Notes under the pieces: model-generated
What the model saw: only the letters and a program-made list of their open reading frames with translations
What the model was told of the DNA's origin: nothing
Databases searched by the model: none
Made by a program: the position numbers and the translations under genes
From: an uncultured delta proteobacterium
Lineage (GTDB): Bacteria; Desulfobacterota; Desulfomonilia; UBA1062
Length of the DNA: 64,000 nt
Assembly: GCA_963752595.1 (NCBI GenBank)
Contig: CAVVYZ010000030.1
Location: 96,001-160,000, forward strand
Direction of reading: 5' to 3'
Part shown: piece by piece, positions 23,333 through 52,332 of the stretch
Layout of the letters: each line of letters begins with the position of its first letter
Position numbering within the stretch: position 1 is the first letter of the stretch

Positions 23333-24493
23333 ATGGCTGTACAGTTCATTGACTTACATACTCAGCAAACAAGGATTTATGATAAGATTCTGGAGAATAT
23401 CAAAAATGTCTTTTCTCATGGGCAATATATTATGGGTCCTGAAATCAAAATGCTGGAGAATCGATTGGGAGATTATGTCGGAGCGAAATATGCGGTTTCC
23501 TGCTCATCAGGAACCGATGCACTCCTGATGGCCCTTATGGCATATGGAGTTGGTCCCGGGGATGCCGTTTTCACCACCCCGTTTACTTTCGTAGCGACGG
23601 CCGAGGTAATTTCCTTGCTCGGTGCTACCCCGGTATTCGTCGACATCGATCCGGATACGTTCAATATCTCCCCTGCTCAAATCGATAAAGCTGTCACAGC
23701 ATTGGAGAACAAGGATCCGGGTATACATCCTCTACCAAAAGGATATGAGCAATTAAGGCCAAGAGGAGTCATTCCGGTGGATCTCTTCGGCCAGCCTGCA
23801 GATTATGAAAAGATCAATGCGATCGGCTCTGCTAGAAAACTCTTTGTCCTTGAGGATGCAGCGCAATCCTTTGGCGGAGAATATAAGGGGAAAAAGGCAT
23901 GCTCCCTCGCAGACATGGCAGCCACATCATTCTTTCCGGCAAAACCCCTTGGCTGCTATGGAGACGGCGGAATGGTGTTCACCGATAATGACGACTTGTA
24001 TGAACAGCTTACTTCTATCAGGGTACATGGAAAAGGCACTGACAAGTACGATAACATCAGGATCGGCATCAACGGCAGATGCGATACCCTCCAAGCAGCG
24101 ATTCTCCTGTCTAAATTCGAGATATTCCCTGAAGAGATCGATCTCAGGCAGAAGGTTGCCAAGCGCTATAGCGATTCGTTGAAGGATAGCCCAAACATCG
24201 AAACACCCCATATACAGAATGGCTTTCTTAGTGCCTGGGCGCAGTATTCGATCACCAGCAAAAAGAAAGAAGATATCTTAACTGCCCTCAAGAAGGCAGG
24301 CATTCCCACTGCTGTTTACTATCCCAAACCTCTCCATCTCCAGGGAGCGTACAGCTATCTGGGTCACAAGCCGGGTGATTTCCCTGTTTCAGAGGAAATA
24401 GCCGGTAAAATCTTCTCTCTGCCCATGCATCCGTATCTCACGGAGCAAGAGCAGAAGCAGATAACGGACGCAATCTTAAGTGCAGTAAGATAA
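23333..24493 (+). CDS. DegT/DnrJ/EryC1/StrS aminotransferase (WbpE-like)
   Basis: FIDL..Q, SSGTDAL, EDAAQSFG, SFFPAKPLGCYGDGG, SLPMHPYL. Confidence 0.93.
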   Translation: MAVQFIDLHTQQTRIYDKILENIKNVFSHGQYIMGPEIKMLENRLGDYVGAKYAVSCSSGTDALLMALMAYGVGPGDAVFTTPFTFVATAEVISLLGATPVFVDIDPDTFNISPAQIDKAVTALENKDPGIHPLPKGYEQLRPRGVIPVDLFGQPADYEKINAIGSARKLFVLEDAAQSFGGEYKGKKACSLADMAATSFFPAKPLGCYGDGGMVFTDNDDLYEQLTSIRVHGKGTDKYDNIRIGINGRCDTLQAAILLSKFEIFPEEIDLRQKVAKRYSDSLKDSPNIETPHIQNGFLSAWAQYSITSKKKEDILTALKKAGIPTAVYYPKPLHLQGAYSYLGHKPGDFPVSEEIAGKIFSLPMHPYLTEQEQKQITDAILSAVR

Positions 24494-24500
24494 CTCATGA

Positions 24501-26087
24501 ATGGAGGAGGTTGTTTTGGAGAACAGTAAAGCTTTAATAGCAGTTGTTGGTGCCGGATACTGGGGGAAAAATCTCGTAAGGAACTATGCCGAATTGGGAG
24601 TGTTGGGCGCTGTCTGTGACAGCAATCAGCAAACGCTTAATTCTTTCAATAAAGCATATCCCGAGATTAAATGCTTCACGAATTTCCAGGAACTTCTTTC
24701 CAATCAAAATATTAAGGCAGTCTCAATCGCAGCCCCGGCCGAAATGCATTTTTCATTAGCGCGAGAGGCCCTTCTCTCTGGAAAGGATGTGTTTGTTGAA
24801 AAGCCGTTGGCATTGAGCCTCTCTGATGCCCATGAACTGAAAGAGATCGCTGAAAAGAATAACAGAGTCCTTATGGTGGGACATCTTCTTCAATATCATT
24901 CGGCTTTTATCAAGCTGAAAGAGATCATACACAATGGAGATCTGGGTAGGATTCATTATATCTATTCAAACCGCCTCAGTTTTGGAAAGATCAGGAGGGA
25001 GGAGGATATCCTCTGGAGCTTTGCCCCTCACGACATTTCCATGATTCTCTCATTGGCTCAGGAGGAACCGGAGTATGTTATGGCAACCGGTGGAAACTAC
25101 CTCCACAAGAAGATCGCAGATGTTACCACAACCCATCTGGAGTTTCCCAGTGGATTGAAGGCACATGTCTTTGTTTCCTGGCTGCATCCTTTTAAAGAGC
25201 AGATGCTCGTTGTAGTAGGAGACAAGAATATGGCGGTATTCAGGGACACTGCATCCTGGGGAGAAAAGCTACTTCTCTACCCGCACAATATTTCATGGCA
25301 TGATGGAATCCCCGAGCCGGAAAAAGGTGATGCCAAAAGCGTGGAGGTCGAAAAGAGCGAGCCGCTTAAAGCTGAATGCGCACATTTCATCGAGTGTATT
25401 ACTTCAAGGAAGAAGCCTGTTACCGACGCTCAGGAAGGAATTGAAGTGCTTAGAATTCTCAAAGCGAGCCAGGATTCTCTCCTCAACAATGGAAAGAAAA
25501 TATCTCTGAAGGAAATGCTCAAGAAGAAGGACACTTTTTTTGCCCATGAGACGTGTTGCATCGATGATGGGGTTGCCATCGGAACAGGGACAAAAGTTTG
25601 GCATTTCAGCCACATACTCAAAGGATCCAGCATAGGGAAAAACTGCAGTATAGGGCAGAACGTGGTGATCGGTCCTGATGCAAAGATCGCAAACGGTTGC
25701 AAGATCCAGAATAATGTTTCTGTATACAAAGGTGTTACCCTAGAAGATAATGTTTTTTGCGGCCCTTCAATGGTCTTTACCAATGTGTTTAATCCTCGGG
25801 CACACATCCCGCGCATGGATGAGATGCGGACTACATTGGTAAAGACAGGCGCCACCATCGGAGCGAATGCCACCATCGTTTGCGGCTATACCATCGGGGC
25901 CTATGCATTTATTGGAGCGGGGGCAGTCATAACCCGGGGCGCTCCCGATTATGCCCTCATGGTGGGCAACCCTGCCAAACAGATCGGGTGGATGTGTGAA
26001 TGCGGAAACAGGCTCGATGATGGTTTCAACTGTTCGTATTGCGGAAAAAGGTATGAGCAATCGCAGGAAGGATTATCGCCGGTTTAA
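24501..26087 (+). CDS. Gfo/Idh/MocA dehydrogenase (WbpB-like) fused to a hexapeptide N-acetyltransferase (WbpD-like)
   Basis: GAGYWG, VEKP, PHD in the N-terminal part; [42 protein letters not shown] in the C-terminal part. Confidence 0.92.
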
Positions 26088-34094: not shown

Positions 34095-34170
34095 TAGTTG
34101 AATGTGGACACTTATTTGTCTAAAAATATCTTATAAATCTGAATTATTGGATCAAGGGATGTAAATATAA

Positions 34171-34907
34171 GTGAAGTTAAATTCAACATCTGGGATACTC
34201 TATGTTCGCGCAAGTCTTAGTCCATTTTCTGAACATATTAAGAGCGCAGGTGGCGTTATCGAGTTTTTCACCAATCTTTTTTGTTTGATGAAATTATCGT
34301 ACCGCATTTTTTTAGAGCGCGGCCATTTTGGCAGCCAGCATCACACTTGCCTAAGGTAACTAATTCCGGCTCATTAGGTAAAATGGTGGCTAATCATGAG
34401 CAAGCTTTTGTCAGTAGACACCCCTCACATAGTTTTGCAGGCATCGGCCCACGCGTGACTAATGTTCTTGAAATGCATGACTACAATTCATCGTGTTTTT
34501 TCCCGATATCAGAACTTGCTGCACGATACGATTTTTCTATGTTGTTGCTAGCATGTGTTAAAGAAAGTCCCGGATTCTCAACGGTTCATGCTGTTCAATA
34601 TGAACTTGGCCTTTCTCAAAAACATCTTATCAGGCATTTACTTAGATGGGACATAGATCTGGGTGATAGGACTAGAAGTATTAAGGCGCATGAGTCACCC
34701 GGTTGTAGCCAGTCATTTGATAAGTTCTACCCTTTTTATGAAAATGATGGAAATCTTATTCGCGGAGAATTGTTCGGCAAGTCTTATATTTTCATTAAAT
34801 CGGCTAGGCAGGCAATGAAATCAGAGAGGGAAATTTTAAGAACCAATCCCCGTTTTGTAGATTGCGGTAGCCTGATCTGCTCTACGTGTAGATTTCGTCT
34901 TTACTAA
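34171..34907 (+). CDS. AAC(3)/Antibiotic_NAT-family acyltransferase; one frameshift at a T6 run (34277-34282)
   Basis: YVRASL N-terminus in the first frame; IIVPHF, SRHPSHSFAGIG, LLL, STVH, GCS..F, C-terminal C....C..CR in the second. Confidence 0.72.
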
Positions 34908-34914
34908 GGATATC

Positions 34915-36060
34915 ATGTATATCTTTTCATCCGAAATTAAAGTGCCTTGTGGGTGTTGCCTAGGGGGATACGGTGATTGTACTATCGATAATATAAATAA
35001 GGGAGGTTCTTTGCATGCAAATGGTCTCGGGTTCAAAGAGTCAGCAAATCCAAGATTTATTGAGGTTTGTTCGATAGATGCGTTGTATCCGGGTGATTTG
35101 GTAATGCGACAAGCTAACCCGATGATTCAGCGAATTTTCGCTGCGTCACATACGCACTTTGCGCCAATGCTTGATGCTACAAAACCAAGTTTAGGTCGGC
35201 ACTCACCAGATATGGTTGCATCGTTTGAGCATGCAATCGAAGGTGCAACAAGAGAGAGAATTGAACCAAATCAATGTCTAATTTTCAGAGGGGAGGTCAA
35301 GTTACCAATCTATCGTCGTTTTGATTACCCCAAATCATTTGTTAACAATGTGTTGACACGACATGCTGGTCTGTTTCCAAATGAAGCCCATGAAGTTGAT
35401 AGAGGTATCTATATCTTTCTTTTTCTGAATGGTTCGACTAATTTATTTGTGATCACTTACCATGCGTGTCATCCCGTAACTAGGCACGATATAAAAGCCG
35501 TGTCAGCAGATTATGTAGATGCAATCCGACACGGTATATTTGAACGTTTTGGAACATCGCATTGCTTGTTTTTCTTAGGATGTGCAGGGGATATCCGGCC
35601 CAACTTTGCAAAAAAAAGAGTGATGTGGTTTCCGAAAAACCGGTTTAATTGGCGATTTAAGTATCCACCATCAGAGATGGATCAGGATGAAGCAGATCAG
35701 CAATATCTGAATGCTGTCTATACTGCGAGCCCAATAGCCTCATTTTCAGTGAATGGTTCCGATTTTATTTACAAACTCCGAAATCTTAATGTGCATGGTG
35801 TTGGTAACATATCTGTTCCCGAAGTTCACATAGGGAAATACGTGATATTTTCTTTCTTTCCATTTGAAATGTCGCATCGTTTTCACCTGGCAACGCGCTT
35901 GAATAAGGCGATGCCTTTGAAATTCATAGTTTCCTGTTCAAATCATACGTTGGGCTATCTACCTTATCCAAATCAGCTTTCTTCTGGCGGTTATGAAGTT
36001 GATGGTTCACGGAGAGATATGGGGCTTAAAAACCGGCTGCTCTTAAAGGAGACCTTTTGA
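34915..36060 (+). CDS. Neutral/alkaline ceramidase-like amidohydrolase
   Basis: LGGYG, SIDAL, ASHTHFAP, YHACHP, SADY, GCAGDIRP, GYLP...GGYE motifs. Confidence 0.65.
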   Translation: MYIFSSEIKVPCGCCLGGYGDCTIDNINKGGSLHANGLGFKESANPRFIEVCSIDALYPGDLVMRQANPMIQRIFAASHTHFAPMLDATKPSLGRHSPDMVASFEHAIEGATRERIEPNQCLIFRGEVKLPIYRRFDYPKSFVNNVLTRHAGLFPNEAHEVDRGIYIFLFLNGSTNLFVITYHACHPVTRHDIKAVSADYVDAIRHGIFERFGTSHCLFFLGCAGDIRPNFAKKRVMWFPKNRFNWRFKYPPSEMDQDEADQQYLNAVYTASPIASFSVNGSDFIYKLRNLNVHGVGNISVPEVHIGKYVIFSFFPFEMSHRFHLATRLNKAMPLKFIVSCSNHTLGYLPYPNQLSSGGYEVDGSRRDMGLKNRLLLKETF

Positions 36061-37373: not shown

Positions 37374-38736
37374 GAGGCCTTTGCACAAATCCGGCAGTTC
37401 CGGGGCGAGACGCAGAGCCGATTATCAGCGATAATGGCATTTAATGCAATGATAATATTGATCAATTATGGTACATTCTTTCCATCTTGTGAATCAAGGG
37501 GAGGGATGGAATGGGATTCAAGGAGTACGAGAGGAACATGAGTTTTCTGGATCTTGAATTGAGCAAGACATTGGGGTCTTCGAGGACGCAGCGGTTTTTG
37601 AAGGAGATCCACGATCATATCAGGTGGGAGCCGTTGGAACGTATCCTGAAGGGAGTCTACCCGGTGGGGAAGTCGGCAGTGGGCAACAGTGCCTATCCTC
37701 CGGTGATGCTTTTAAAGGCGTTAATGCTGCAGAAGTGGTTTGGGATCAGGAGTGATCCTGAACTGGAGAACCAGATCAACGATCGGATATCATTCAAGGT
37801 ATTCATCGGGCTGCCTTTTGGGAACCCATCTCCAGATCACAGTGTGATTTGTCGGTTTCGTGAGCGGGTTGGCAGTGGATGCGAGGCTGGTGAGATCGGC
37901 ATCGAGCCCTTTAAGCAAGGACAAGCTTGAGAAGGTGCGTGAAGATCGGGAGCAGAAGGAACAAGAGGGGATAGGCAAGCCGATAAAGTTCAGCCGGGAT
38001 CTGGAATCTGACTGGACAGTGAAGAATGATAATCCGGTCTATGGGATGAAGGAGCATACGTCTATTGATGTAAAGAGCGGGCTGGTATTATCGATGGTGC
38101 TCTCGCGAGCATCCGAGCATGACACGAACTATTTACAGTATGTGGTAATCAAGGGGATTCATACAAAGAAGCTGCCGCCGAAGGTGTGGATAAGGGGTAT
38201 CATGGGCAAGTAAACCGTGAGTTCTTGCATATCAATGGGATAGCAGACGGGATCATGCGCAAGGATGAGAGGAATGCAAAGCTGACAGAGCTTGAGGTAG
38301 AGCGAAACAAGATGATCGCGAAGGTTCGCTATAAGATCGAGCAGTATTTTGGGGTCACAGCCCTACACCAGGGAGCCTCCCGAGCCCGGTTCACCACTCT
38401 TGCCCGGGAGGGATGGGACAGAATCTGCCAGGTATTGCAGCGGCAATTAAAGAAATGAACATAAGCCTGGGCAAGAATCGTTTAGGATTCAGATGAATAA
38501 TTGCCGCTACTATAATTGCGTTCAATATGAAGCGGTCATACTTTGCGGGGTTAAGGCAGCCTGCACATGCAACGGCTTTCTAGGGACAGGTGTGTCCGGA
38601 GCATGGAAATACTACCGGATATGAGAGAATTGGGGATGATTTTGGCTGGGAATTGAGACCTTTTTCTTGAGAAACTGATGAAAAAATACCAATCACCCCC
38701 AGATAAACGCTTCTTGCCGGATTACGCAAAGGTCTC
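37374..38736 (+). mobile_element. IS5-family element, degenerate (internal ~80 bp deletion, small deletion, MITE insertion)
   Basis: IRs GAGGCCTTTGCACAA / TTACGCAAAGGTCTC. Transposase pieces from 37511: LQKWFG..SDPELE, PDHS..RFR, VDA, GMKEH, DKGY, RYKIEQYF. Confidence 0.92.
38435..38512. mobile_element. 78-bp micro-MITE with TA target duplication; second copy at 29862-29939
   Basis: IRs TTGCAGCGGCAATTA / TAATTGCCGCTACTA, flanked by TA on both sides. It interrupts the transposase codons Q-V-I-A-F, which are uninterrupted in the copy near 51200. Confidence 0.82.
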
Positions 38737-38747: not shown

Positions 38748-39386
38748 ATGTTTAAAATAGGTAGAGTTTTAGTTTTGGCACCGCATACGGATGATGGGGA
38801 ATTCGGTTGTGGGGGCACGATAGCAAAGTTGATTGATGAAGGTAAAGAGGTTTATTATGTTGCTTTCTCTGATTGCGAGAAATCGCTGGACCCCGGCATG
38901 GCACCGGATACGCTCGTTAAAGAATTAATGAGTGCCACAAAGGAATTAGGTATTCCGGAAGGGAATGTTCTTGTCAAAAAATATGAGGTCAGATGCTTCG
39001 GCAGAGATAGGCAGGATATATTAGAAGACATGGTATATTTTAACAAGCATATGAATCCTGACATAGTGTTCCTTCCATCACCTAAGGATCTGCATCAGGA
39101 TCACAACACAATTGCAATGGAAGGGCTGCGGGCATTCAAACTGACTTCAACTATCCTCGGTTACGAGGTGCCATGGAACAACCTTTCCTTTAACACGACA
39201 AGCTTTGTGACGCTGAGCGAAGATAATATAAATAGAAAAATTGATGCATTAAAATGCTACGAATCACAAACCAACCGTTTTTATTCATCTGGGCAATTCA
39301 TAAGATCATTAGCCATAACACGAGGAACACAAATCGGTACACAATATGCGGAGACTTTTGATGTACTCAGGTGGATCATTAGATAA
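38748..39386 (+). CDS. PIG-L/LmbE family N-deacetylase
   Basis: LAPHTDDGEFGCGG and HQDH metal motifs; K..AL..YESQ. Confidence 0.92.
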   Translation: MFKIGRVLVLAPHTDDGEFGCGGTIAKLIDEGKEVYYVAFSDCEKSLDPGMAPDTLVKELMSATKELGIPEGNVLVKKYEVRCFGRDRQDILEDMVYFNKHMNPDIVFLPSPKDLHQDHNTIAMEGLRAFKLTSTILGYEVPWNNLSFNTTSFVTLSEDNINRKIDALKCYESQTNRFYSSGQFIRSLAITRGTQIGTQYAETFDVLRWIIR

Positions 39387-39433
39387 AATATGACAACGCC
39401 AACACAGTATACAACGTACATTGAGGATATGAC

Positions 39434-40768
39434 ATGGCGAGTATATTAGACAAAATTGAACTGCTAAGTTATCAAGAGCACTATGAAAAAGTTGATAAAT
39501 ATTTACTGATCAATCAACTAAAATATGTAATGGAAAACAGCCTATTCTATTATGATAAATTCAAGAGTTCCCGCGTTAACACAATTCCGTCAATAGATGC
39601 GTTTTTAGATTTACCATTTACAGATAAGCGTGAAATTCTTGATGAGCAAGCATCATATCCCCCCTTTGGCAGACTGGCGATTGGCAATGATGTACGTTCG
39701 TTAAGAAGGGTTCATGTGACTTCTGGTTCAACTGGGAAACCGGTATATATCATTTTAACGGAGAATGATTTAGCGGCAACAGTTGAAGCTGGAGGAAGAG
39801 CTTTTAGGTGTGCTGGATTAACGCCTGATGATACAGTGATTCACTGTCTGAACTATTGCTTGTGGGCTGGTGGTGTTACAGACCACCTCAATCTGGAAGC
39901 GACAGGCGCAACGGTAATCCCTTTTGGCGTCGGAAATACGGTAAACCTCATACGAACCATTCGTGATTTGCATCCGACGGCAATATCCTGCACACCATCA
40001 TATTTATCGCGTCTTGAGTATGTATTAGAAAAAGAGTTCAACGTGCAACCGCCGGAACTTGGCCTTAAGAAAGCCCTCCTTGGCGGTGAGGGTGGCGTTC
40101 AAGATACCAAGGTGCGATCAAGAATTGAGACAACATGGAATTTGCGAGCGATTGATGCTAACTATGGCATGGCAGATGTGCTTAGTATCTTTGGATCAGA
40201 ATGTGAAACAAGAGAAGGTATGCATTTTCATGGGCAGGGTATTCTTTATCTTGAACTAATTGAACCGGAGACAATGAAAGTACTCTCTTTAGAAGATGGA
40301 CAGGTGGGTGAAATGGTTTTGACAACTTTAAAAAGAGAAGCACAGCCTCTTGTCCGCTATCGAACTGGTGATGTGGTGAGAATTGTCTCAACAAAACAAT
40401 GTAAATGTGGGAGGTCATCATTTAGATTTGTCGTTATTGGAAGAACTGATGAGATGATTGTGGTGCGGGGTATAAATGTTTTTCCATCCGTGATAACAAA
40501 TATTTTATCAGAACGCCCCGATTGGTTCACTGGTGAATATGAATTTGTGTTGGACAATCCGCCTCCAATTGAAAGACCTCTTTTAAGAATTGAACTTAAG
40601 GCTACAAACATCAATGCGGCGGATAGAACTATTGAATCATTCATTCAAAGAAAATGTAGAGAGAACTATAATTTTACGCCCCGCATCCAATTATTAACTA
40701 TAGGCACCTTACCGAGGACGGAAGGTAAGTCCAAAAGGCTTAGAAGGGTTTATCAGGAAAAGGAATGA
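39434..40768 (+). CDS. Phenylacetate-CoA ligase (PaaK)-like adenylate-forming enzyme
   Basis: LPFTDK, TSGSTGKP, CTPSY, YGMAD, PLVRYRTGD, GRTDEM..RGINVFPS, GKSKR. Confidence 0.9.
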   Translation: MASILDKIELLSYQEHYEKVDKYLLINQLKYVMENSLFYYDKFKSSRVNTIPSIDAFLDLPFTDKREILDEQASYPPFGRLAIGNDVRSLRRVHVTSGSTGKPVYIILTENDLAATVEAGGRAFRCAGLTPDDTVIHCLNYCLWAGGVTDHLNLEATGATVIPFGVGNTVNLIRTIRDLHPTAISCTPSYLSRLEYVLEKEFNVQPPELGLKKALLGGEGGVQDTKVRSRIETTWNLRAIDANYGMADVLSIFGSECETREGMHFHGQGILYLELIEPETMKVLSLEDGQVGEMVLTTLKREAQPLVRYRTGDVVRIVSTKQCKCGRSSFRFVVIGRTDEMIVVRGINVFPSVITNILSERPDWFTGEYEFVLDNPPPIERPLLRIELKATNINAADRTIESFIQRKCRENYNFTPRIQLLTIGTLPRTEGKSKRLRRVYQEKE

Positions 40769-40900
40769 AGTAAAAAAAGAGACATCGCTACAACCAATAT
40801 TCAATGCCATTAGTAAGGTTTCTGACGCCATCGTGCCAATGGATCAAGTAAGTCTATGACATTATAAAACAGATAATCGTAATCAGGAAAAGAGGGATTT

Positions 40901-41791
40901 ATGCCTGTCACAAGTTCGGACGTAGCACATTTTTTAGAGAAAAAATTAAATGGGGCTTCCGTATCTATTGATAAACCTGCTGATTTGAATGAATGTGGCT
41001 CGTCAGATATTGTGTGGGTCAAAAAGTTTAGTCCTGAGCGTTTAAGCATCTTGGAATCGAGGCGGCCAGGTTTAGTTATATGTGATGAGACAACATCTCA
41101 GAATACACTTGTTTCAAACATTATATCTAATAACCCACGCTTGGATTTTATCAAGGTTATGAACCATTTCTTTTCACGCCCACCCAAAATAGGAATTCAT
41201 CCAACCGCAATTATTGAAGAAGGCGCTATATTAGGAAGCAACATAAGTATCGGTGCATACTGCTGTATCGGAAGCCAGGTGAAGATAGGTGATAATTGTG
41301 TGATACATTCTGGTGTTGCGATTGAAGGTAAAGTTCACTTGGGAAGACAATGCGTAATTAAATCAAATAGCGTGATAGGCGGTGAAGGCTTCGGTTTTGA
41401 ATATGATGAAGATGGGAATCCAATACATTTCCCGCATATTGGAAGAATAGAAATTGGAGATGATGTCTGGATTGGTGCATGTTCAACAGTTGAAATCGGT
41501 GCTCTCGGTGCAACAGTAATTCGTAATGGATGCAAGATTGATGATTTAGTCCAAGTTGGTCATAATGTCATCGTAGGCAAAAATACGCTTATAATGGCCA
41601 ATACGATAATTTGCGGCGGTGCGATTATTGGCGAAAAATGTTGGATTGCTCCTAATAGCGTTGTAAAAGAGAAAATCAGGATTGGCAATAGGGTGACTAT
41701 CGGCCTTGGTTCTGTAGTAATCAGAAATATTGAGGATGACATCATAGTCGCTGGTGTACCGGCAGCGCCACTTAAGCCTAAGAATAAGTGA
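40901..41791 (+). CDS. LpxD-like left-handed beta-helix acyltransferase (paralog 1)
   Basis: NPRLDF, IHPTAII, GGEGFGF, PHIGRIEIGDDVWIGA, KIDDLVQVGHN, AGVPA; no C-terminal helical domain. Confidence 0.88.
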   Translation: MPVTSSDVAHFLEKKLNGASVSIDKPADLNECGSSDIVWVKKFSPERLSILESRRPGLVICDETTSQNTLVSNIISNNPRLDFIKVMNHFFSRPPKIGIHPTAIIEEGAILGSNISIGAYCCIGSQVKIGDNCVIHSGVAIEGKVHLGRQCVIKSNSVIGGEGFGFEYDEDGNPIHFPHIGRIEIGDDVWIGACSTVEIGALGATVIRNGCKIDDLVQVGHNVIVGKNTLIMANTIICGGAIIGEKCWIAPNSVVKEKIRIGNRVTIGLGSVVIRNIEDDIIVAGVPAAPLKPKNK

Positions 41792-41835
41792 TAAATAAAC
41801 TTCCTTATTGATATTTTCGATAAAAGGAGAGGTAT

Positions 41836-42732
41836 ATGTATAGAATTAAAAGAATAGAGATTTGGGCATCTGAGATAGCGGAATACCTCAATAAGCCATT
41901 TGTGGGAAAGGATTTTATCATAAAAGATCTCCATTCCATTAAAACTAATAAATCTTTCATAAATCATTTAACTGCAAACGATGAGATTAAAGATGATATT
42001 TTAGTGATATCTAAGGCGCCATTTGATCAACTGAAATGTGGAGGATACATAATATCAGAAAACCCAGATCTTGATTTAGCCTACTTGCTACGAGAATTCT
42101 TCACGGTTTCGTCAATCAGTGAAGTACATGAAACTGCAATTATAGCTGAAAATGCGAAGATTGGTCGCAATGTCATGATAGGCGCAAACTCTGTCATCGG
42201 TGATGATGTTGTCATTGGCGACAATACAAAAATCTTGAATAATGTAGTTATAAATGGTCCCGCGGAGGTAGGCAAATTTTGTATAATTAAGGATGGTTCT
42301 ATTATTGGCAGCGAAGGGTGGGCATTTATTAATGATGAAGATGGTATACCTCTACATGTTCCGCAAGTGGGCCGCATCTTGATTAAGGATAGAGTTTGGA
42401 TTGGGTCAAATGCTACAATAGAACGAGCAATGATTGATGAGACGATAATAAGCGAGAATGTAAAAATTGATGACCTTGTACATGTTGGTGGAGGATCTAT
42501 TGTTGGGGAAAAAGCTCAATTGACCGCAGGCGTGGTGGTCGCCTACTATGTAAATATTGGCCTTTGTACAGTAATAGCACCCAATGTGGTCATTAGAGAG
42601 CATGTTAACATTGGTGATAATGTATTGGTTGGACAAGGGGCTGTTGTCATTTCTGATCTTGAAGGTGGTAATGTATATGTAGGTAATCCGGCACGTTTTC
42701 TTAAGAAGAATGTAATAATACATGGACGGTAA
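41836..42732 (+). CDS. LpxD-like left-handed beta-helix protein (paralog 2)
   Basis: NPDLDL, VHETAII, GSEGWAF, PQVGRI..VWIGSN, KIDDLVHVGGG, VGNPA. Confidence 0.85.
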   Translation: MYRIKRIEIWASEIAEYLNKPFVGKDFIIKDLHSIKTNKSFINHLTANDEIKDDILVISKAPFDQLKCGGYIISENPDLDLAYLLREFFTVSSISEVHETAIIAENAKIGRNVMIGANSVIGDDVVIGDNTKILNNVVINGPAEVGKFCIIKDGSIIGSEGWAFINDEDGIPLHVPQVGRILIKDRVWIGSNATIERAMIDETIISENVKIDDLVHVGGGSIVGEKAQLTAGVVVAYYVNIGLCTVIAPNVVIREHVNIGDNVLVGQGAVVISDLEGGNVYVGNPARFLKKNVIIHGR

Positions 42733-42734
42733 AT

Positions 42735-43820
42735 ATGGAAAAGGATATATTTAAAGAAAAGATAACGCCTTTCCTCCAGGAAAGGCTTGCTAACCTCGAA
42801 TCCTCTTATGGTAAAGAATCAGCCGCTTATAAAGGCCTTGCACTTCAATATGTAAGAAGTAACATGGAGAATATTGAAACAGAAGAATGTAATTTGAAAC
42901 ATTATGAAGCGGGCCTGGAAGCACAAGAGTTATCAGATGGTGTGCCTGGAATTGAAAGATTATACAAAAAAACCATAGTCGTTGAACCAACCCTCATTTG
43001 TCTTGCACATTGCCGGTATTGTTTGCGGAGTAATTATAAGAAACATACGCTTACAGAAAAACAACTTATTGAGATAGCAAAGTATTGTGGTAATGAAATG
43101 AATCGCATAAGTCTCAATGAAATGCTGATTACCGGTGGTGACCCCCTTATTGTACCGCAAAGGCTTGAGGTGCTTTTGAATGCCTTGATTGAATATGCCT
43201 CTAATATAAAAATTATCAGAATTGGTACGCGGGTGCCAGGTCACGACCCAAGAAGAATTGATGAAAGCATCGTTGCCCTTTTTAAAAATAAGCCCACATT
43301 ACGATTTGAACTTGCCACTCAGATTAATCATCCCATAGAATTTTTCCCGGAAGTTCAAGAAGCCTTTAAGAAGATCAGTGAGTTAGGGGTTAAAATATAT
43401 GCGCAAAATGTTCTATTAAAAGATGTGAACGATAATATCGATACGCTTAATGAACTATATAGCGAAATGAGAGGAAATAATATTGAGGCACACTACCTCT
43501 TTCATTGTATCCCCATGATTGGAATACATCACTTGAGAACCAGTATAGGAAAAGGATTGGACTTAATCAAAGAATTGGTCTGTTCTGGAAAAATCTCAGG
43601 CCGGGCTAAACCAATGTTTGCGGCTATGACAGACATTGGGAAGATTACATTCTATGAGGGAGTTATTCAAAAAAGAGAAAATGGACGTGTTCTTTTGCAA
43701 AGCAATTATCGTTATGTGGATAGATTGAAATGGAATCCATCATGGCAGCTACCCAAAACGGCAGAGATTGATGAAAATGGTTTATTACGGGTTTGGTATG
43801 TCGATGGCGAAGACTCATGA
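42735..43820 (+). CDS. KamA-family radical SAM/PLP 2,3-aminomutase-like protein
   Basis: PGIERLY, CLAHCRYCLR, LITGGDPL, RIGTRVP, QINHPIE, QNVLLKDVND, SG..P.F...GK. Confidence 0.9.
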   Translation: MEKDIFKEKITPFLQERLANLESSYGKESAAYKGLALQYVRSNMENIETEECNLKHYEAGLEAQELSDGVPGIERLYKKTIVVEPTLICLAHCRYCLRSNYKKHTLTEKQLIEIAKYCGNEMNRISLNEMLITGGDPLIVPQRLEVLLNALIEYASNIKIIRIGTRVPGHDPRRIDESIVALFKNKPTLRFELATQINHPIEFFPEVQEAFKKISELGVKIYAQNVLLKDVNDNIDTLNELYSEMRGNNIEAHYLFHCIPMIGIHHLRTSIGKGLDLIKELVCSGKISGRAKPMFAAMTDIGKITFYEGVIQKRENGRVLLQSNYRYVDRLKWNPSWQLPKTAEIDENGLLRVWYVDGEDS

Positions 43821-45118
43821 GAATTTGGTTGGTTTCTATAGGTGAACCAATACCAACAAGCTCTGACAGTAATTCTCGATTGCTTCGAACAGGATATTTT
43901 GCTAATTTACTGTCACAATATGGCCATGATGTAATCTGGTGGTCTTCTGCATTTGATCACTTCAGAAAAAAGCAGCTTTGCACTACGGATAACGATTTTA
44001 TTATTAATCAGAATCTTACTATAAAGCTTTTGTGTGGCTCAGGATACAAAAGTCATGTGTCGCTTAAGCGGGCCTGGGATCACTGGATAATCTCTAGGAA
44101 GTTTTCTTCGGCCATTAGGAAGGAGATTATACTTCCGGATCTAATTTTAGCTGCATTACCTACGATAGATCTCTGCTATGAATCAGTTGTGTTCGGGAAT
44201 CAACATGGCATACCAGTAGTTCTTGATATGCGAGACATGTGGCCAGATATTTTTGTTGATCTCGCTCCTGATTTCTTAAGACCATTAACACGACGCCTTT
44301 TAAGTTATCAGTTTCGGAAAGCTGGATACGCATGCGAAAAAGCCACGGCTATTGTTGGGATAACGGATGAATTTGTTGTATGGGGTTTAAAACGGGGACA
44401 ACGTAGCTGGCAAGAATTCGACAAATCATTCCCCTTTGGATATTCGATTCAGGCCACAACAAGAGAATCAGAGGACAAAGCATATATTGAACTCAGTCGT
44501 CGAGGAATTCGTTTCGATGACAACAACTTATATGCTCTTTATATTGGATCGCTCAGTCGCAATGCAAAGTTAGGTGATATCATATCTGCAAGCAGAATTC
44601 TTTATGAGCAAAACTCGAAATGGCAGTTTATTGTATGTGGCGATGGTGATTGTGTTGATCTAATAATAAATCATGCTAGCAAATATCCAAATGTAAAATA
44701 CGGGGGTTGGGTAGATAAAAATTTGATTCATGGTCTAATGCGACGATGTCATGTTGGGTTAAATCAACTTCCTGATCGATACGATTTTCTTGCCACCATC
44801 AACAACAAAGCCATTGAGTATATGAGCGCGGGACTCCCTATTATTTCAAGTCCGGATCGGGGTGTTCTATGTGAGCTTCTCAAGATGCATGAGTGCGGGA
44901 TAAGTTATTCTTCTGGTGATGCTGCTGCTCTAGCTGCGACGCTTTCACGATTTTATGATGACCGGGATATGCTAAGGAAAATGTCACAGAACGCCATGCT
45001 GCTCTTCCAAAAACGGTTTCCCGCAGAAAAGGTTTATACAGAGATGATGGAGCATTTGGTGATGATAGCGGAAAATACAAAACAGAATCAATCTTTTAGA
45101 ACAAGACACCAATTTTGA
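43817..45118 (+). CDS. Glycosyltransferase family 4
   Basis: MRIWLVSIGEPIP, DMRDMWPD, NKAIEYMSAGLPII. Confidence 0.9.
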   Translation: MRIWLVSIGEPIPTSSDSNSRLLRTGYFANLLSQYGHDVIWWSSAFDHFRKKQLCTTDNDFIINQNLTIKLLCGSGYKSHVSLKRAWDHWIISRKFSSAIRKEIILPDLILAALPTIDLCYESVVFGNQHGIPVVLDMRDMWPDIFVDLAPDFLRPLTRRLLSYQFRKAGYACEKATAIVGITDEFVVWGLKRGQRSWQEFDKSFPFGYSIQATTRESEDKAYIELSRRGIRFDDNNLYALYIGSLSRNAKLGDIISASRILYEQNSKWQFIVCGDGDCVDLIINHASKYPNVKYGGWVDKNLIHGLMRRCHVGLNQLPDRYDFLATINNKAIEYMSAGLPIISSPDRGVLCELLKMHECGISYSSGDAAALAATLSRFYDDRDMLRKMSQNAMLLFQKRFPAEKVYTEMMEHLVMIAENTKQNQSFRTRHQF

Positions 45119-45145: not shown

Positions 45146-46072
45146 ATGAACAGACAGGACGACATTATGATTGACAAGAAAATACAGCAGAAAATTGAGT
45201 ATAGGCCCTCTCTGGCTGGGCGCCTGGCAAGGATTTTCATACCATTGCTTCAAGCAATACTTCCGCCAAAGGCATACAGAGTGATCTATGATGGACTCTA
45301 TAAGGGCTACAAACAGATTCTCAGAGCGAGCTATGTAGTAAGGGTACTCGAAGCAAGACTCTTTGGTGATCGGGAGCAGCAGTTAAAGACATCACTCACA
45401 CGACAGTTACTCCCCTACAGCATGGGAGGATGGAAGGCGCTCGAGAATGCATTCGAAGTTACTGCGTTTGTCGAACAAAAAAAAATCGAGGGAGCCTTGG
45501 TTGAGTGCGGTGTAGCTGAGGGGGGTACTGCTGCGATGATGGCTCTGACAAATCTGGAACTTGGAGCGAATACGCGACAAAAGTGGTTTTTCGACTCCTA
45601 TGAAGGCCTACCTGAGCCAACTGCTGAAGACTACGAAGGCGGTAAAGCGGGCCATTTTATTCGTCCACTTCAAAAAGGGGCATGTCTAGGGACCATTGAG
45701 CAAGTCAGTGATTTGATGTTCGATAAATTACACTTGCCCAAGAATGAGGTTCATCTGGTGAAGGGCTGGTTCCAAGACACGGTGCCCGTTCATCGTGAGA
45801 AAATAGGGCCAATTGCTGTGCTGCGTCTGGATGGTGACTGGTACGAGTCCACCAAGATACCACTGGAATATTTCTTTGATCAGATTAGTGTTGGCGGCTT
45901 TGTAATCATTGATGATTATGCAACTTGCTTCGGTTCTCATAAGGCGGTGGATGAGTTTCGAGCAGATCGCAATATTACTACCCCATTGCGCCCTGACGGG
46001 CGGGGAGGTGCTTGGTTTGAAAAGCCGACCTCAGACAACAGATTCAAGAAGAACGAGGCAAGCTTCGGGTAA
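45146..46072 (+). CDS. TylF/MycF/NovP-family sugar O-methyltransferase
   Basis: GALVECGV..GG, FDSYEGLP, VKGWFQDT, LRLDGDWYEST, GGFVIIDDY. Confidence 0.92.
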   Translation: MNRQDDIMIDKKIQQKIEYRPSLAGRLARIFIPLLQAILPPKAYRVIYDGLYKGYKQILRASYVVRVLEARLFGDREQQLKTSLTRQLLPYSMGGWKALENAFEVTAFVEQKKIEGALVECGVAEGGTAAMMALTNLELGANTRQKWFFDSYEGLPEPTAEDYEGGKAGHFIRPLQKGACLGTIEQVSDLMFDKLHLPKNEVHLVKGWFQDTVPVHREKIGPIAVLRLDGDWYESTKIPLEYFFDQISVGGFVIIDDYATCFGSHKAVDEFRADRNITTPLRPDGRGGAWFEKPTSDNRFKKNEASFG

Positions 46073-46090
46073 TGTACCCAGAGAGAGTAA

Positions 46091-46777
46091 ATGAATAAAA
46101 CCGGATTAATAGAAGCTCAGACTACTTGTACAGGAGGACAGATAAAATCCGTCATCCATCCCGCTTGGGCGCTGGTTCTAAAGCGGTCGTTCGATATGGT
46201 GTTTTCCTCGTTTGTACTCCTTTTGATATGGCCGTTGATTGGGGCAGTGGCTATTGGCATTAAGTTGTCCAGCCCTGGGCCGGTCTTTTACAGAGGCGTA
46301 AGGACAGGCTTACACGGGAAACCTTTCCGAATCATCAAATTCAGAACCATGATAGAAGGTGCCGAATCTCTGGGTGGGCCTACTACAGGCACTAACGATC
46401 GGAGAGTAACCCGTATTGGCTCCTTCCTCCGTCGAACCAAGATCGATGAACTACCCCAGTTCCTGAATGTCTTGTTGGGGGATATGAGCCTAGTTGGACC
46501 TCGCCCAGAAGTGTTTGAATACACGGCAAATTACGAAGGTGAGGAAAAATGCATTCTTTGTATGCGCCCTGGTATAACTGATTACGCGTCAATAGAGTAC
46601 GCCGACCTTGATGATCGTGTGGGGAGTAGAGATCCAGACAGGTACTTTCGTGAACATATCCTACCCCACAAGAATGCATTACGGATCAAATATGTGAAGG
46701 AATGGTCCCTTGGCTCAGATTGCAATATTCTCTGGGTGACCTTTTGCCGGGTCGTGAAGAGGATTGCTGTTCAATGA
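46091..46777 (+). CDS. Small monotopic phosphoglycosyl transferase (bacterial sugar transferase, PglC-like)
   Basis: [43 protein letters not shown]. Confidence 0.92.
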
Positions 46778-47724
46778 GCATTTTGGAGACAATGCATCTG
46801 GGTAATACTGGTCCTTATGCCAGTCGTCTTGGTATGGGCTGTTGGGCAATAGGCGGTCATGGGTGGGGAAAGGTGAGGGAGGAGGAATCCATCCGGGCTG
46901 TAAAGTGTGCATTAGATAGTGGAGTCACATTTTTTGATACGGCAGATGTGTATGGGCTTGGGAAGTCAGAAACATTATTAGCAGATGTGCTGGGCTCATC
47001 CCGCACAAAAGTTGTGATTGCAAGCAAAGGGGGCGTCCGTTGGAACGATAGTGGGCATATATGGACAGATATCTCACCGACCTACCTGAGACTAGCTATA
47101 GAAAATAGCCTTAAAAGATTGAAACTGGATTGCATTCCCCTTTACTATATTCATAAATTTGATGATATAACCCCTGTACAAGAGAGTATTGCAGCCCTTG
47201 AGCGTATGCGTAAGGAAGGTAAGATCGGGTCTATCGGTGTTTCGAACGTCTCTTCCGATCAACTGTTACAGGCCTTGCAGGTTGCACCGGTAGCAGCGGT
47301 TCAGGTTCGGTTGAATATCTTTGATCGAGATGCGAGTAAGGATTTATTCGACATTTGTAAAAGGCAGGGCATTACACTTGTTGCTTGGGGCGCACTTGCG
47401 GATGGACTATTAACCGGTAAGTTCAAGGCCGATATGAAGTTCTCAGACGACGATCATCGGAGCAGGATGCCAGAATTTAAAGGGAAATTATTTCTGGGAT
47501 ATAACAGATGCATACAATCGCTTGAGCAGGTGGCTACCGAAAGGGGACGCCGGGTTGGCCAACTTGCACTTCGCTGGGTCTTGGATCTTGAGCCTTTTAC
47601 ATGTGCGCTTTTCGGCGCAAAAACGGATACTCAGGTAACTGAGAATTTGGGCGCGGATGGGTGGAGCTTAACAAAGGTAGATCTCACAGCTATCGATTCC
47701 ATTGTGGGTAAGTTTGGAAGATGA
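46774..47724 (+). CDS. Aldo/keto reductase
   Basis: LGMGCWAIGG, DTADVYG.G.SE, SLKRL..D.I.LYYIH, IGVSN, GLLTGK. Confidence 0.92.
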   Translation: MSILETMHLGNTGPYASRLGMGCWAIGGHGWGKVREEESIRAVKCALDSGVTFFDTADVYGLGKSETLLADVLGSSRTKVVIASKGGVRWNDSGHIWTDISPTYLRLAIENSLKRLKLDCIPLYYIHKFDDITPVQESIAALERMRKEGKIGSIGVSNVSSDQLLQALQVAPVAAVQVRLNIFDRDASKDLFDICKRQGITLVAWGALADGLLTGKFKADMKFSDDDHRSRMPEFKGKLFLGYNRCIQSLEQVATERGRRVGQLALRWVLDLEPFTCALFGAKTDTQVTENLGADGWSLTKVDLTAIDSIVGKFGR

Positions 47725-47725
47725 T

Positions 47726-48703
47726 ATGACTTTCTCAATCGATGCATTATATGATTTGTATAAGACCATGCTTCGCATACGCTTTTTCGAAGAGGGCCTG
47801 GTGGAACCCATCCTGAACAGAGAAATCCACACGCCCTGCCATCTTTACAGTGGTCAGGAGGCTGTAGCCGTTGGCCTCTGCAAAGCCCTTTCCCAGGATG
47901 ATTATATCTTCGGCAACCACCGTTCGCATGGCCATTTCCTGGCCAAAGGAGGTTCCTTGCAGGCCTTGGCGGCCGAGATCTACTGCCGGGAGACCGGCTG
48001 CTCCCGGGGCCGTGGTGGTTCTATGCACCTGATCGATCCCACAGTGGGCATGCTTGGTTCGGCGCCAATCGTGGCCGGGACCATCTCCCTGGCTGTAGGC
48101 GCGGCCCTTGCCTCTTTGATACGAAAGGACGGCCGCGTGTCCGTGAGCTTTTTCGGGGATGGAGCTACCGGGGAGGGTGTCCTGTATGAATCCATGAACT
48201 TCGCCGCGCTAAAAAAACTCCCGATCATATTCGCCTGTGAAAACAATCTATACGCTACCCACATGCACATCCGGGAGTGCCGCGTCAACCAGCCGATCCG
48301 CAAGATTGCCGAACCCTTCGGGATTGATAATCATGAAGTGGATGGGAATGATGTTCTGCAGATCTACGGTAAGGTACGACAGGCCGCAGAGGCCTGCCGG
48401 AAGGGAAATGGTCCGGTTTTCATGGAGTTCTTGACCTATCGCTATCGCGGCCACGTAGGGCCGGATGACAATATCCAAGGGCTCCATACGGATATCAGAC
48501 CCCAAGAAGAGTTAACCCAATGGTTTGAGAAAGACCCGATCCGGAGACTTGAGCGGCACCTCATGGAACACCATTTGATGGACGAGCAAGATCTGCTGCC
48601 TATCAAGGATGAAGCAGAAAAAGAGGTACGGGAAGCTAAGGCGTACGCAGAAAACAGTGCACGACCGAGACTTGAGGAGATGGCCAAATATGTCTTTGCA
48701 TAG
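47726..48703 (+). CDS. ThDP-dependent dehydrogenase E1 alpha-like subunit
   Basis: HLYSGQEA, HRSHGH, GRGGSMH, GDGA..EG..ENN ThDP motif, TYRYRGH. Confidence 0.93.
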   Translation: MTFSIDALYDLYKTMLRIRFFEEGLVEPILNREIHTPCHLYSGQEAVAVGLCKALSQDDYIFGNHRSHGHFLAKGGSLQALAAEIYCRETGCSRGRGGSMHLIDPTVGMLGSAPIVAGTISLAVGAALASLIRKDGRVSVSFFGDGATGEGVLYESMNFAALKKLPIIFACENNLYATHMHIRECRVNQPIRKIAEPFGIDNHEVDGNDVLQIYGKVRQAAEACRKGNGPVFMEFLTYRYRGHVGPDDNIQGLHTDIRPQEELTQWFEKDPIRRLERHLMEHHLMDEQDLLPIKDEAEKEVREAKAYAENSARPRLEEMAKYVFA

Positions 48704-50056: not shown

Positions 50057-51426
50057 GAGACCTTTGCACAATTCCGACAGATCTGGGGCGAGGTATAGAG
50101 CCGATCATCAGCGGTTATGGCATTTAAGGCAATGATAATATTGATTAAATATGGTATACTCTTTCCATCTTATGAATCAAGGGGAGGGATGGAATGGGAT
50201 TCAAGGAGTACGAGAGGAACATGAGTTTTTTGGATCTTGAATTGAGCAAGACACTGGGATCTTCGAGGACGTAGCGGTTCTTGAGTGAGATCCATGATCA
50301 TATCAGATGGGAGCCAGTGGAGAGGATACTGCTTGGGGTTTACCCGGTAGGGAAGTCTTCAGTGGGCAATGTAGCCTATCCCCCTTTAATGTTATTAAAG
50401 GTGTTGATGCTGCAGAAGTGGTTTGGGATCAGGAGTGATCCTGAACTGGAGAATCAGATCAATGATGGGATATCATTCAAGGTATTTATAGGTCTACCCT
50501 TTGGAGATCCGTCTCCTGATCACAGTGTGATTTCGCAATTTCGGGATCGGGTGGGCAGCAAGGCGATGGAGAAGATACACGCAGAGCTGTTGAGTCAGTT
50601 GCGGTCAAAGGGTTTTTTCGATCGATGCCGGTCTGGCGGTGGATGCGAGATTGGTACGTTCGGCATCGAGCCCATTGGGCAAGGACAAGATTGAGAAGGT
50701 GCGTGAAGAGCATGAGCACAAGGACAACAAAGGGGGGATAGGTAAGCCCGTGAAGTTCAGCCGGGACCTGGAATCTGACTGGACGGTGAAGAACGATGTG
50801 CCTCTTTATGGGATGAAGGAGCACGCGTCTATTGATGTAAAGAGTGGGCTGGTACTATCGACGGTACTCTCGCGAGCATCGGAGCATGACACGAACTATT
50901 TTCAGTTTGTGGTGATCAAGAGCATGCACACCAGGAAGATGCCGCCTGTGGTGTATGCGGACAAGGGCTATCATGGGCAGATGAACCGTGAATTCCTGCA
51001 TATCAATGATATGAAAGACGGGATCATGAGGAAGGATGAGAGGAACGCGAAGCTGACCGAGCTGGAGATAAAGCGCAACAAGATGATCTCGAAGGTGAGG
51101 TATAAGATTGAGCAGTATTTTGGTGTGACAGCACTCCACCAGGGAGCCTCGCGAGCTCGGTTCACTACCCTTGCGAAGGAGGGGTGGGACCGGATGTGTC
51201 AGGTTATTGCGTTCAACATGAAGAGGTCTTACTTAGCGGGGTTAAGGAAGCCGGCGCATGCAGCTGCATGCTAGGGACAGGTGTGTCCGGAGCATGAAAA
51301 TGCTGCCGGATATAAGGGGCTTGCGGATGATTTGGCAGGGAATTGAGCTCTTCTTCTTGAGAATTTGATGAAAAATTACCAATCAGTCCCAGAAAAAAGC
51401 TTCTTTCTCGATTACGCAAATGTCTA
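50057..51426 (+). mobile_element. IS5-family element, full length but inactivated (nonsense codon plus frameshift)
   Basis: IRs GAGACCTTTGCACAAT / ATTACGCAAATGTCTA. Transposase 50194-51274 has TAG at 50272 (CAG in the 37.5 kb copy) and a frameshift in a T run near 50615. Confidence 0.92.
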
Positions 51427-51441: not shown

Positions 51442-52332
51442 TTATGGCCGCTTCTTGTCCGGCCAGGAATACCAGCTGTCAAAAAGCACATACCCTGCGG
51501 TGATTCCCTGGGATATTGCTCTTTTCAACATCATAAGGGCAAGCTCAAGCTTGGTATACATCGAGGCTTCCCTGCTCATCTGACCACTGATGCTCCGGGC
51601 ATCGCCGATACGTTCTTCAGGACTCTTTGGATGACGTTTCTTTCCGTATTTATAGGAAAAGTCCAAAGCATACATCCCCTTGCCTGTGAAGAGGCCGAGC
51701 ACGACAACAGTATAACCAAGCACCGAGCGGTTCACGGTATGATCATGCAAGAAAGATACGTTCTCAATATCTCTGCCCCTCTTGGAGAGTATGCTATCGT
51801 CAAGTATGAAGCATCTCTCCTCTATAGGTGCCTCGTCGAACTTCAGAACCCTCCGGATCTCCTTCATGATATAGTACAGAAACGATCGCCAGCGGTATCC
51901 CCTGGCCTTGAACCGATAAAAGGTGTCCTTCCTGCTGCTTGTGTACTGCTCAAGGTGATTGCGGCAGAAGCTCCGAACAGTACGTATTTTCAGCAATGGC
52001 AGAAGTACCAGCACGAACAGGATCTGTGCTGCATGATACCCATCCTTCTTGATAATCTTCGCCTTGTTCATCTGCGTCCTGAATCCAAGCCGACTCAGTC
52101 CTTCGTCAATCTTGGTCTCAAATATCCGCCCCTCTTTATCCAAGTATTCCTCGATTTCTCCTTTGAACGCTTTGCCCGGTGTGATATACATGATCAGGGA
52201 CTCCTTTGCGGTGTATTGTTTGTCTTATCAACAACTTATATACCACAAAAGCGAGTCCCTTTCACCATTTTCCTTGCTGTTTTATTGACTTTTCTCACCC
52301 CATCCCTTCAAATAAGGGTGCGAAACTTGAGT
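51442..52332 (-). mobile_element. Truncated IS4-superfamily (DDE) element: 5' half of the transposase (start 52191) plus left end
   Basis: SRKDTFYRF, ILDDS..KRG..IE.VS..HDH, YVLFDSWY. The ORF stops shortly after the second Asp; IR-like ACTCAAGTTTCGCAC on the minus strand at ~52332. Confidence 0.8.

Follow-up and report, generated by a model that had tools for sequence, protein, structure and literature searches.

The window analyzed here, a 64,000-nucleotide stretch of contig CAVVYZ010000030.1 from an uncultured delta proteobacterium, carries a cassette of five genes (38748..43820) whose products probably exchange the N-acetyl group of an amino sugar for a beta-aminoacyl group, with the mutase, ligase, deacetylase, a histidine-bearing LpxD-like protein and a following GT4 glycosyltransferase acting in that order. 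A radical S-adenosylmethionine (SAM)/pyridoxal phosphate (PLP) mutase would shift the amino group of a neutral L-amino acid from C2 to C3, and a PaaK-like ligase would activate the resulting beta-amino acid, probably as a coenzyme A (CoA) thioester. The deacetylase would free the sugar amine, to which the histidine-bearing LpxD-like protein would link the acyl group as an amide; a UDP-hexosamine that has yet to enter the GT4 reaction is the most likely acceptor. When this pathway is considered jointly with two variants, one in which the ligase makes the amide directly and one in which the sugar is acylated after its transfer, a beta-aminoacyl sugar as the product is very likely.

All five genes are intact and co-oriented, as an earlier note on this DNA had described; they are stop-free open reading frames (ORFs) on the plus strand with intergenic gaps of 47, 132, 44 and 2 nt. 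They encode a PIG-L/LmbE-family de-N-acetylase (38748..39386, 212 aa), a PaaK-like adenylating ligase (39434..40768, 444 aa), two LpxD-like left-handed beta-helix proteins, copy 1 (40901..41791, 296 aa) and copy 2 (41836..42732, 298 aa), and a KamA-like radical-SAM/PLP 2,3-aminomutase of a distinct clade (42735..43820, 361 aa). The ligase and mutase are core genes, while the deacetylase is an accessory module and copy 2 is of the type that usually adjoins the mutase. The GT4 gene on the same strand (43817..45118), a candidate user of the acylated sugar nucleotide, likely starts at ATG 43817, not TTG 43793, which places an ATGA overlap at the mutase stop and agrees with the overlap noted earlier. 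The family assignments made in the note were also borne out, with only the deacetylase and one broad LpxD model exceeding curated cut-offs. No acyl carrier protein (ACP) gene had been seen near the cassette; our motif scan of short ORFs likewise found no ACP-like ORF in 23000-64000, and one typical ACP of the genome sits on another contig. The proposed location inside an O-antigen cluster holds as well, as the surrounding locus is a Wzy-type polysaccharide cluster with wbpE-like, wbpB-wbpD fusion, wzz, wzx, wbuX/hisH/hisF and GT4 genes together with initiating transferase, wbpM-like and O-antigen-ligase-like genes. Housekeeping LpxD, KamA and PaaK are present separately on other contigs, so the cassette versions are extra paralogues; a housekeeping role of the cassette in lipid A synthesis or lysine fermentation was therefore rejected.

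Gene neighborhoods were compared in 160 loci fetched by peptide patterns, 123 from the close group of the mutase (at least 38% identity) and 37 canonical. Matches of at least 230 residues served as alignment rows (113 subfamily, 20 canonical), and the synteny set was obtained by dereplication at 95% (99 of 113) followed by a requirement for flanks of at least 4.5 kb on the upstream and 1.5 kb on the downstream side (58 of 99). A ligase gene was found near the mutase in 35 of these 58 loci, and mutase, ligase and an LpxD-like gene occurred together in 30 of 58 as against none of 15 canonical KamA loci used as a control. Two LpxD-like genes were present in 12/58 loci. The conserved unit is mutase, ligase and one LpxD-like gene; co-occurrence of the cassette, put forward in the earlier note as a check, is upheld for these three genes, while a fixed five-gene unit was rejected, all five genes being present in only nine of the 58 loci, which are kin in one clade. 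Glycan genes are present in 33 of the 35 ligase loci, and NeuB/NeuA-type genes in eight. By record labels, the three-gene core occurs in about a dozen phyla, although some bins may be mislabeled. Recurrent neighbor families without a Pfam or NCBIfam match were also observed in cassette loci (L126:12133-13515, L008:11074-12177, L005:12455-13639 and L115:6564-7694).

Other amide-forming partners adjoin members of the same mutase clade. A GNAT gene stands in place of the LpxD-like gene, together with the ligase, in four Planctomycetota-type loci (L012, L013, L017 and L134), and an adenylation domain (A-domain), an ACP-like ORF and an AAC(3)-like gene replace both ligase and LpxD-like gene in L039, L048 and L051. 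Mutase-ATP-grasp fusions were found in three loci (L049:8681-11056, L050:8708-11059 and L185:6772-9093), in the last two between pseG and pseI, in the place normally taken by an N-acetyltransferase; these two are predicted to give a pseudaminic acid that carries a beta-aminoacyl group. In a teichoic-acid locus, L020, the mutase has a PIG-L protein on one side and an ATP-grasp gene on the other. Support for an amide-linked product comes above all from the finding that one mutase clade is accompanied by four amide-forming chemistries unrelated to each other. The core of the ACP-independent beta-aminoacyl route suggested in the earlier note is supported by synteny, residue patterns and these four coupling modules, whereas the independence from ACP applies only to the version found in the window, given the A-domain and ACP elsewhere.

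The ligase scores 232-238 bits against the best NCBIfam PaaK models, about one third of their cut-offs (646-700), and its closest structures are phenylacetate-CoA ligases. The adenylation motifs TSGSTG, YR(T)GD and GRxD and the terminal Lys are kept. Residues C138, W144 and D150 are present in 56 of 56 rows (the window and 55 from loci, not dereplicated), and N140 and a one-residue gap after YGxxD complete the subfamily signature; the gap resembles that of beta-amino-acid A-domains. The housekeeping PaaK paralogue has M, F and L at 138, 144 and 150, and PaaK 2y27 has Ala at 150. Since Ala147 of PaaK1, which matches position 150, lines the floor of the aryl pocket, an invariant Asp at this place fits an amine on the acyl substrate. 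The ligase departs from PaaK in this respect, with an acidic Asp150 in an otherwise aryl pocket.

The two LpxD-like copies are 38% identical and score 208 and 167 bits against the LpxD model TIGR01853 (cut-off 242.5). Both have an N-terminal domain, shortened in copy 2, and a left-handed beta-helix. Copy 1 keeps residues equivalent to D232, Q236 and the catalytic H239 of E. coli LpxD (H221 here), while copy 2 has Gly at the position of the catalytic His. Both lack the C-terminal ACP-binding helix, ending 8 and 12 residues after GxPA compared with 36 in the housekeeping LpxD. According to PMC6286764, H239 acts as the base of LpxD, the beta-hydroxyl of the acyl group is held by D232 and Q236, the C-terminal domain binds ACP, and loss of the catalytic His lowers kcat about 1000-fold. 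Among 78 cassette-type rows, not dereplicated and compared with four true LpxD, the D232 position is Asp in all 78 and position 233 is an added Asp in 77 (Asn in 4/4 true LpxD); a new loop His is present in 70/78, and the C-terminal tail has 3-26 residues in 73/78 versus 36 in the housekeeping enzyme. The missing ACP-binding helix and the fixed Asp at 232/233 support an ACP-free donor with a beta-substituent. Twin acyltransferases, as the earlier note had it, are not established, given the missing catalytic His and the shortened N-terminal domain of copy 2. Most likely, copy 2 either dispenses with the LpxD base and acylates another amine, one supplied by an aminotransferase, or is a partner subunit. 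The LpxC-LpxD pair of lipid A follows the same deacetylate-then-reacylate logic with a left-handed beta-helix enzyme, yet the cassette differs from it in having a deacetylase of the PIG-L type and a ligase that would supply the acyl group. Copy 1 matched 1/401 genomes in a Bacteroidota sample, the centre genome of the sample itself.

An unlikely alternative is that the ligase makes the amide directly from a beta-aminoacyl adenylate, with no CoA thioester, the role of the LpxD-like proteins being confined to binding or presenting the sugar nucleotide. Only 26 of the 78 LpxD-like rows have His at the position of His239, a cassette-type LpxD-like gene is missing from five of the 35 ligase loci, and the PaaK-like relatives in the PDB include the non-CoA ligases 6siw and 6wuq. 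On the other hand, the GNAT that replaces the LpxD-like gene in the four Planctomycetota-type loci points to an acyl-CoA donor, the LpxD-like proteins keep a GxPA CoA-type C-terminus, and the ligase is structurally closest to CoA ligases. Formation of a CoA thioester by the ligase is probable.

A relative of the cassette is found in a phage. The viral contig L168 (112 kb, 69% complete) comes from a myophage, with genes for capsid, sheath and portal and for a family A polymerase fused to uracil-DNA glycosylase (UDG), and encodes in L168:4651-10439 an HD nucleotidase, a deacetylase, a His-bearing LpxD-like protein, a ligase, a mutase and a 359-aa glycosyltransferase. Compared with the window, the deacetylase is 29%, the ligase 39% (D150 kept) and the mutase 45% identical (same signature). 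The phage cassette includes no aminotransferase, which suggests that the acylated amine is that at C2 of a host N-acetylhexosamine. The 359-aa protein is 33% identical to the product of gene 153 of phage SP-15, and its model (pLDDT 90) best matches T4 DNA alpha-glucosyltransferase (E 1.6e-12, TM 0.71). Gene 153 lies inside a cluster proposed for thymine hypermodification (genes 146-155), as stated in PMC5977210, and, according to PMC13697223, phages with modified thymine are among those that have UDG-fused polymerases, though not the only ones. These features suggest that DNA hypermodification is the likely role of the phage cassette. The likeness to the SP-15 cluster and the T4 enzyme concerns the phage glycosyltransferase only, not the window, and in the stretch examined the SP-15 cluster has no annotated aminomutase, ligase or deacetylase, unlike the phage cassette.

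A further 21 mutase clusters are 73-79% identical to the phage mutase, of which seven are inferred to be co-located with a homologue of the glycosyltransferase because the longest contigs of the two agree exactly in length. PF00303 was not found in the 69%-complete phage record. Searches of cultured phages gave only canonical-type KamA matches of 25-29% identity, including Vibrio phage GR11A without an annotated cassette, and there was no "aminomutase" among the matches listed in the phage literature. The phage version amounts to a four-enzyme minimal system needing only common host metabolites, and predicts a DNA modification chemically heavier than known phage glycosylations. SP-15 gene 153 itself (L172:8998-10140, annotated as hypothetical) may encode the enzyme that glucosylates SP-15 DNA, given the GT-B fold resembling T4 alpha-glucosyltransferase in the model of its homologue; a counterpart was noted in Listeria phage LIS04 (L173:8956-10116).

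The deacetylase has intact metal motifs (H13-x-D15-D16 and H116-x-D118-H119) and belongs to the PIG-L/LmbE family by its match to PF02585 (57.9 bits, cut-off 28.2; E 2e-15). It resembles BshB1 and diacetylchitobiose deacetylase but scores far below the BshB1 and BshB2 cut-offs (67 of 182.5 and 33 of 195 bits). It was found in 10/58 loci, always with a His-bearing LpxD-like gene: 10 of the 13 loci with a His-bearing copy have it as against none of the 17 with only His-less copies, although these loci are mostly kin, L027 being a separate branch. PIG-L orthologues free of the cassette were detected in two of 400 phylum genomes and in one additional genome (G401), all three within two genes of wbqC, one of these loci beginning at a contig end. 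WbqC, like AntD, is an enzyme for N-acyl O-antigen amino sugars, and PIG-L with WbqC may represent a parallel deacetylate-and-reacylate module. The earlier note had offered two roles for the deacetylase; its pairing with the His-bearing copy and with WbqC favors freeing of the sugar amine for re-acylation over deprotection of the beta-amino acid. The pairs of PIG-L orthologue and WbqC lie at L164:7919-9337, L165:3-1832 and L167:1495-3616, once with WbqC as a GNAT-WbqC fusion.

The similarity to BshB1 and diacetylchitobiose deacetylase raises the possibility of the order known for mycothiol and bacillithiol, to which we give little credence here: transfer of the N-acetyl sugar would come first, and its deacetylation and acylation would take place afterwards, with the lipid-linked repeat unit (in the phage, DNA) as the carrier. 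GT4 genes flanking the cassette are compatible with this order. However, copy 1 keeps the LpxD-type uridine-binding N-terminal domain, in which the corresponding site has an aromatic residue, and the loci with the mutase between pseG and pseI place acylation among the nucleotide-sugar steps. Both points argue for acylation of a sugar nucleotide before the GT4 step.

By sequence the mutase matches lysine 2,3-aminomutase (2A5H, E 4e-28), which is also the best fold match (E 8.5e-20, TM 0.63) of its predicted model (pLDDT 91.7). The Geomonas oryzisoli protein QWV91953.1 is 71% identical to the mutase. Profile scores remain below the curated cut-offs of the KamA family (TIGR00238, 139 bits, cut-off 199), lysine 2,3-aminomutase (TIGR03820, 130 of 525) and glutamate 2,3-aminomutase (127 of 650), as well as those of arginine aminomutase and EpmB. 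With these relatives it shares the fold, the CxxxCxxC motif (C89/C93/C96), R98 as the equivalent of Arg134 and K303 as the equivalent of the PLP lysine Lys337. The cysteines and the Arg are present in 111/113 subfamily rows (two gaps) and the lysine in 109/113 (four gaps). It differs from them in forming a separate clade (SH-aLRT 100; 100/100 in a second tree) that sits in glycan loci instead of lysine fermentation or elongation factor P (EF-P) loci, and in two positions of the substrate pocket. Asp293 and Asp330 of lysine 2,3-aminomutase, which bind the side-chain amine of lysine, correspond to I259 and M298 in the window; the first position is V/I in 109/113 subfamily rows and the second M/L in 109/113, as against D in 20/20 and D/E in 20/20 canonical rows. 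Glutamate 2,3-aminomutase has Lys and Asn at these positions.

Hydrophobic residues at both positions make a neutral, uncharged amino acid the likely substrate. A branched or hydrophobic one (Leu, Val, Ile or Met) is our leading guess, at somewhat under an even chance; alanine or another small residue and a polar uncharged residue are each a good deal less likely, and an enzyme that is not an aminomutase at all is improbable. Lysine was rejected as substrate on account of the hydrophobic positions, and we consider it highly improbable; identity as a glutamate aminomutase was also rejected. The Arg134 equivalent, presumably a carboxylate-binding residue as Lys337 is the PLP-binding one, suggests a free amino acid as substrate and hence action of the mutase before the ligase. 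The KamA-like aminomutase of the earlier note stands as to fold, cluster, PLP lysine and Arg134, but it is not a lysine aminomutase.

Other PLP-radical chemistry, such as elimination or a tethered substrate, with an acyl group that is not a beta-amino acid, is quite improbable. The mutase has only about 32% identity to canonical KamA, is under all curated cut-offs, and has altered residues at the His230, Tyr287 and Gln291 positions and a PLP loop shorter by two residues. The retained cluster cysteines, Arg134 and PLP lysine speak against such chemistry, as do the fixed acidic residues in both downstream enzymes and the Streptomyces-type members that adjoin ATP-grasp and A-domain amide ligases. 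That the deacetylase and copy 1 form a separate module for another acyl group, with only ligase, copy 2 and mutase belonging together, is hardly credible: the three-gene core lacks deacetylase and copy 1 in most loci, PIG-L orthologues occur without the cassette and a 132-nt gap precedes copy 1, yet in the phage and in L027 the deacetylase occurs alongside ligase, mutase and just one LpxD-like gene, a His-bearing one, with no second copy, and at only 29% identity of the phage deacetylase the pairing arose more than once.

Several observations weigh against the proposed exchange of N-acetyl for a beta-aminoacyl group. The peptide patterns used for fetching favor close relatives, and the nine loci with all five genes are kin, not independent cases, as they belong to a single clade of 24 rows (support 87). 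There is no ligase nearby in 23 of the 58 loci: six belong to glycan loci where the mutase has other partners, several to actinobacterial clusters of the nonribosomal peptide synthetase (NRPS) or ATP-grasp kind, and the remainder are stand-alone genes. Stand-alone mutase genes occur without glycan context in Dongiaceae and Planctomycetota. Seventeen of the 30 loci with ligase and LpxD-like gene have only a His-less LpxD-like gene, which makes the amide-forming enzyme uncertain. The phage LpxD-like protein has D-F instead of D-D. In a second homologue set, position 259 of the mutase is Cys in 20/90 and Asp in 2/90, and its specificity may vary accordingly. PIG-L enzymes with solved structures use glycosides and are not known to use UDP-sugars. 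The stand-alone mutases seen among housekeeping genes are those of L032, L035, L036, L038, L040 and L042 (Dongiaceae and kin) and of L025, L112 and L113 (Planctomycetota-type).

A broader and more tentative proposal, to which we assign a lower probability than to the pathway in the window and somewhat less than even odds, is that a mutase clade for neutral amino acids of the leucine, valine or alanine type supplies a portable route to beta-aminoacyl sugars in O-antigens, nonulosonic acids and teichoic acids via the four amide-forming modules, and that one phage family captured this route to decorate its DNA with a beta-aminoacylated amino sugar.

Each part of the cassette has a known relative and keeps its chemistry, yet falls outside the definition of the named family. 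We found no description of the combination in the literature searched, with subscription journals and supplements outside its scope, in line with the earlier note, which knew of no characterized glycan pathway of this kind. For aminomutases in connection with O-antigens, the matches examined, in the parts covered, concern glutamate-semialdehyde and phenylalanine aminomutases, and the portions of PMC13317340 and of a virus-glycosyltransferase preprint that were covered contain no relevant passage. Amino sugars of O-antigens carry N-acetylalanyl, N-acetylglycyl and 3-hydroxybutyryl groups (PMC3210612, in part), and the same part of that source has no "beta-amino" or "aminobut" passage. These sugars resemble the predicted product in their amide-linked non-acetyl substituents, but use alpha-amino or hydroxy acids and have no dedicated aminomutase. 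If the pathway operates as proposed, it would add a class of glycan substituents, a cationic, protease-resistant beta-amino amide, along with genes recognizable from sequence in about a dozen phyla. The small set of known radical-SAM aminomutases would also gain a further class of substrate, and a neutral-amino-acid enzyme could be useful for beta-amino acid biocatalysis.

The pathways for beta-amino acid starters of macrolactams (incednine IdnL4, VinN/VinM) likewise use a radical-SAM aminomutase followed by an adenylating enzyme, as described in part of PMC11284099, and actinobacterial members of the mutase clade adjoin similar A-domains. These starters, however, go to a polyketide via ACP, whereas the cassette has a PaaK-type ligase and a sugar acyltransferase, and IdnL4 is assigned to glutamate in the part of the source cited. 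The A-domains adjoining the mutase have an unusual D-P start, a hydrophobic pocket and no close solved match, and no substrate was called from their codes. Three actinobacterial cluster types in cultured strains use the mutase clade, and their products would reveal the beta-amino acid. Gene combinations observed around the mutase include ATP-grasp, TauD, a second ATP-grasp and a major facilitator superfamily (MFS) gene (L029, L034 and L037); KAS III, ACP, A-domain and polyketide synthase (L028, L031 and L055); and a lysyl-tRNA-synthetase-like gene, an ATP-grasp gene and a lantibiotic-dehydratase-like gene (L043). In Streptomyces axinellae (L021:9980-18302), the mutase precedes an NRPS with a terminal reductase and an extra leucyl-tRNA synthetase. 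The latter is possibly a self-resistance gene for a leucine-like product, which we regard as a weak lead. Matches of the mutase in the ESM Atlas are unnamed radical-SAM clusters only.

The cassette is sporadic in its distribution and mobile. Four of the 401 genomes of the phylum sample, that of the window among them, have the mutase, and neither of two same-genus genomes searched does; a search of plasmids gave no match for the mutase or for LpxD-like copy 1. GC of the polysaccharide cluster is below that of the genome. A frameshifted insertion-sequence copy lies immediately 5' of the cassette (37374..38735, plus strand) and a related one, also frameshifted and in the same orientation, at 50057..51425, the two being 83-87% identical. 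The pair brackets 38.7-50 kb with the cassette, GT4, TylF, sugar transferase, aldo-keto reductase (AKR) and E1 alpha/beta genes, the two copies lying in direct orientation around a 12.7-kb block, and more transposase remnants were seen at 33240-34111 and 51442-52191. GT4 counterparts of 73-87% identity follow the mutase in L004, L081 and L082.

Upstream of the cassette, a DegT-type aminotransferase gene (WbpE-like) and an oxidoreductase-acetyltransferase fusion gene (WbpB-WbpD-like) lie at 23333..26087 on the plus strand, the fusion (24501-26087) joining a Gfo/Idh/MocA oxidoreductase to a hexapeptide acetyltransferase. These genes would be the source of a 2,3-diamino sugar and hence of a candidate acceptor; the acceptor in the window is likely a 2-amino or 2,3-diamino hexuronate that genes upstream of the cassette would produce. 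Counts of predicted promoters (31 versus 22.6 +/- 5.4 by chance) and terminators (5 versus 5.7 by chance) were uninformative. Among the sequencing runs listed as carrying this DNA, none was of RNA, and two DNA runs had a small share of it. In the GC-rich part of the window at 14742-21607, genes for a thiolase-like protein, a short-chain dehydrogenase and an oxidoreductase look split across frames, suggesting sequencing frameshifts in these housekeeping genes, while the cassette has none. Downstream of the GT4 gene, the TylF methyltransferase, sugar transferase, aldo-keto reductase and E1 alpha/beta genes (45146-49670) are 71-87% conserved together with the cassette in L004, and the E1 pair suggests a branched-chain sugar. 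At 34281-36060, an AAC(3)-like acyltransferase is followed by a 381-aa protein without a Pfam or NCBIfam match; the two recur in L082 at 76% and 66% and are possibly a second sugar-acylation module.

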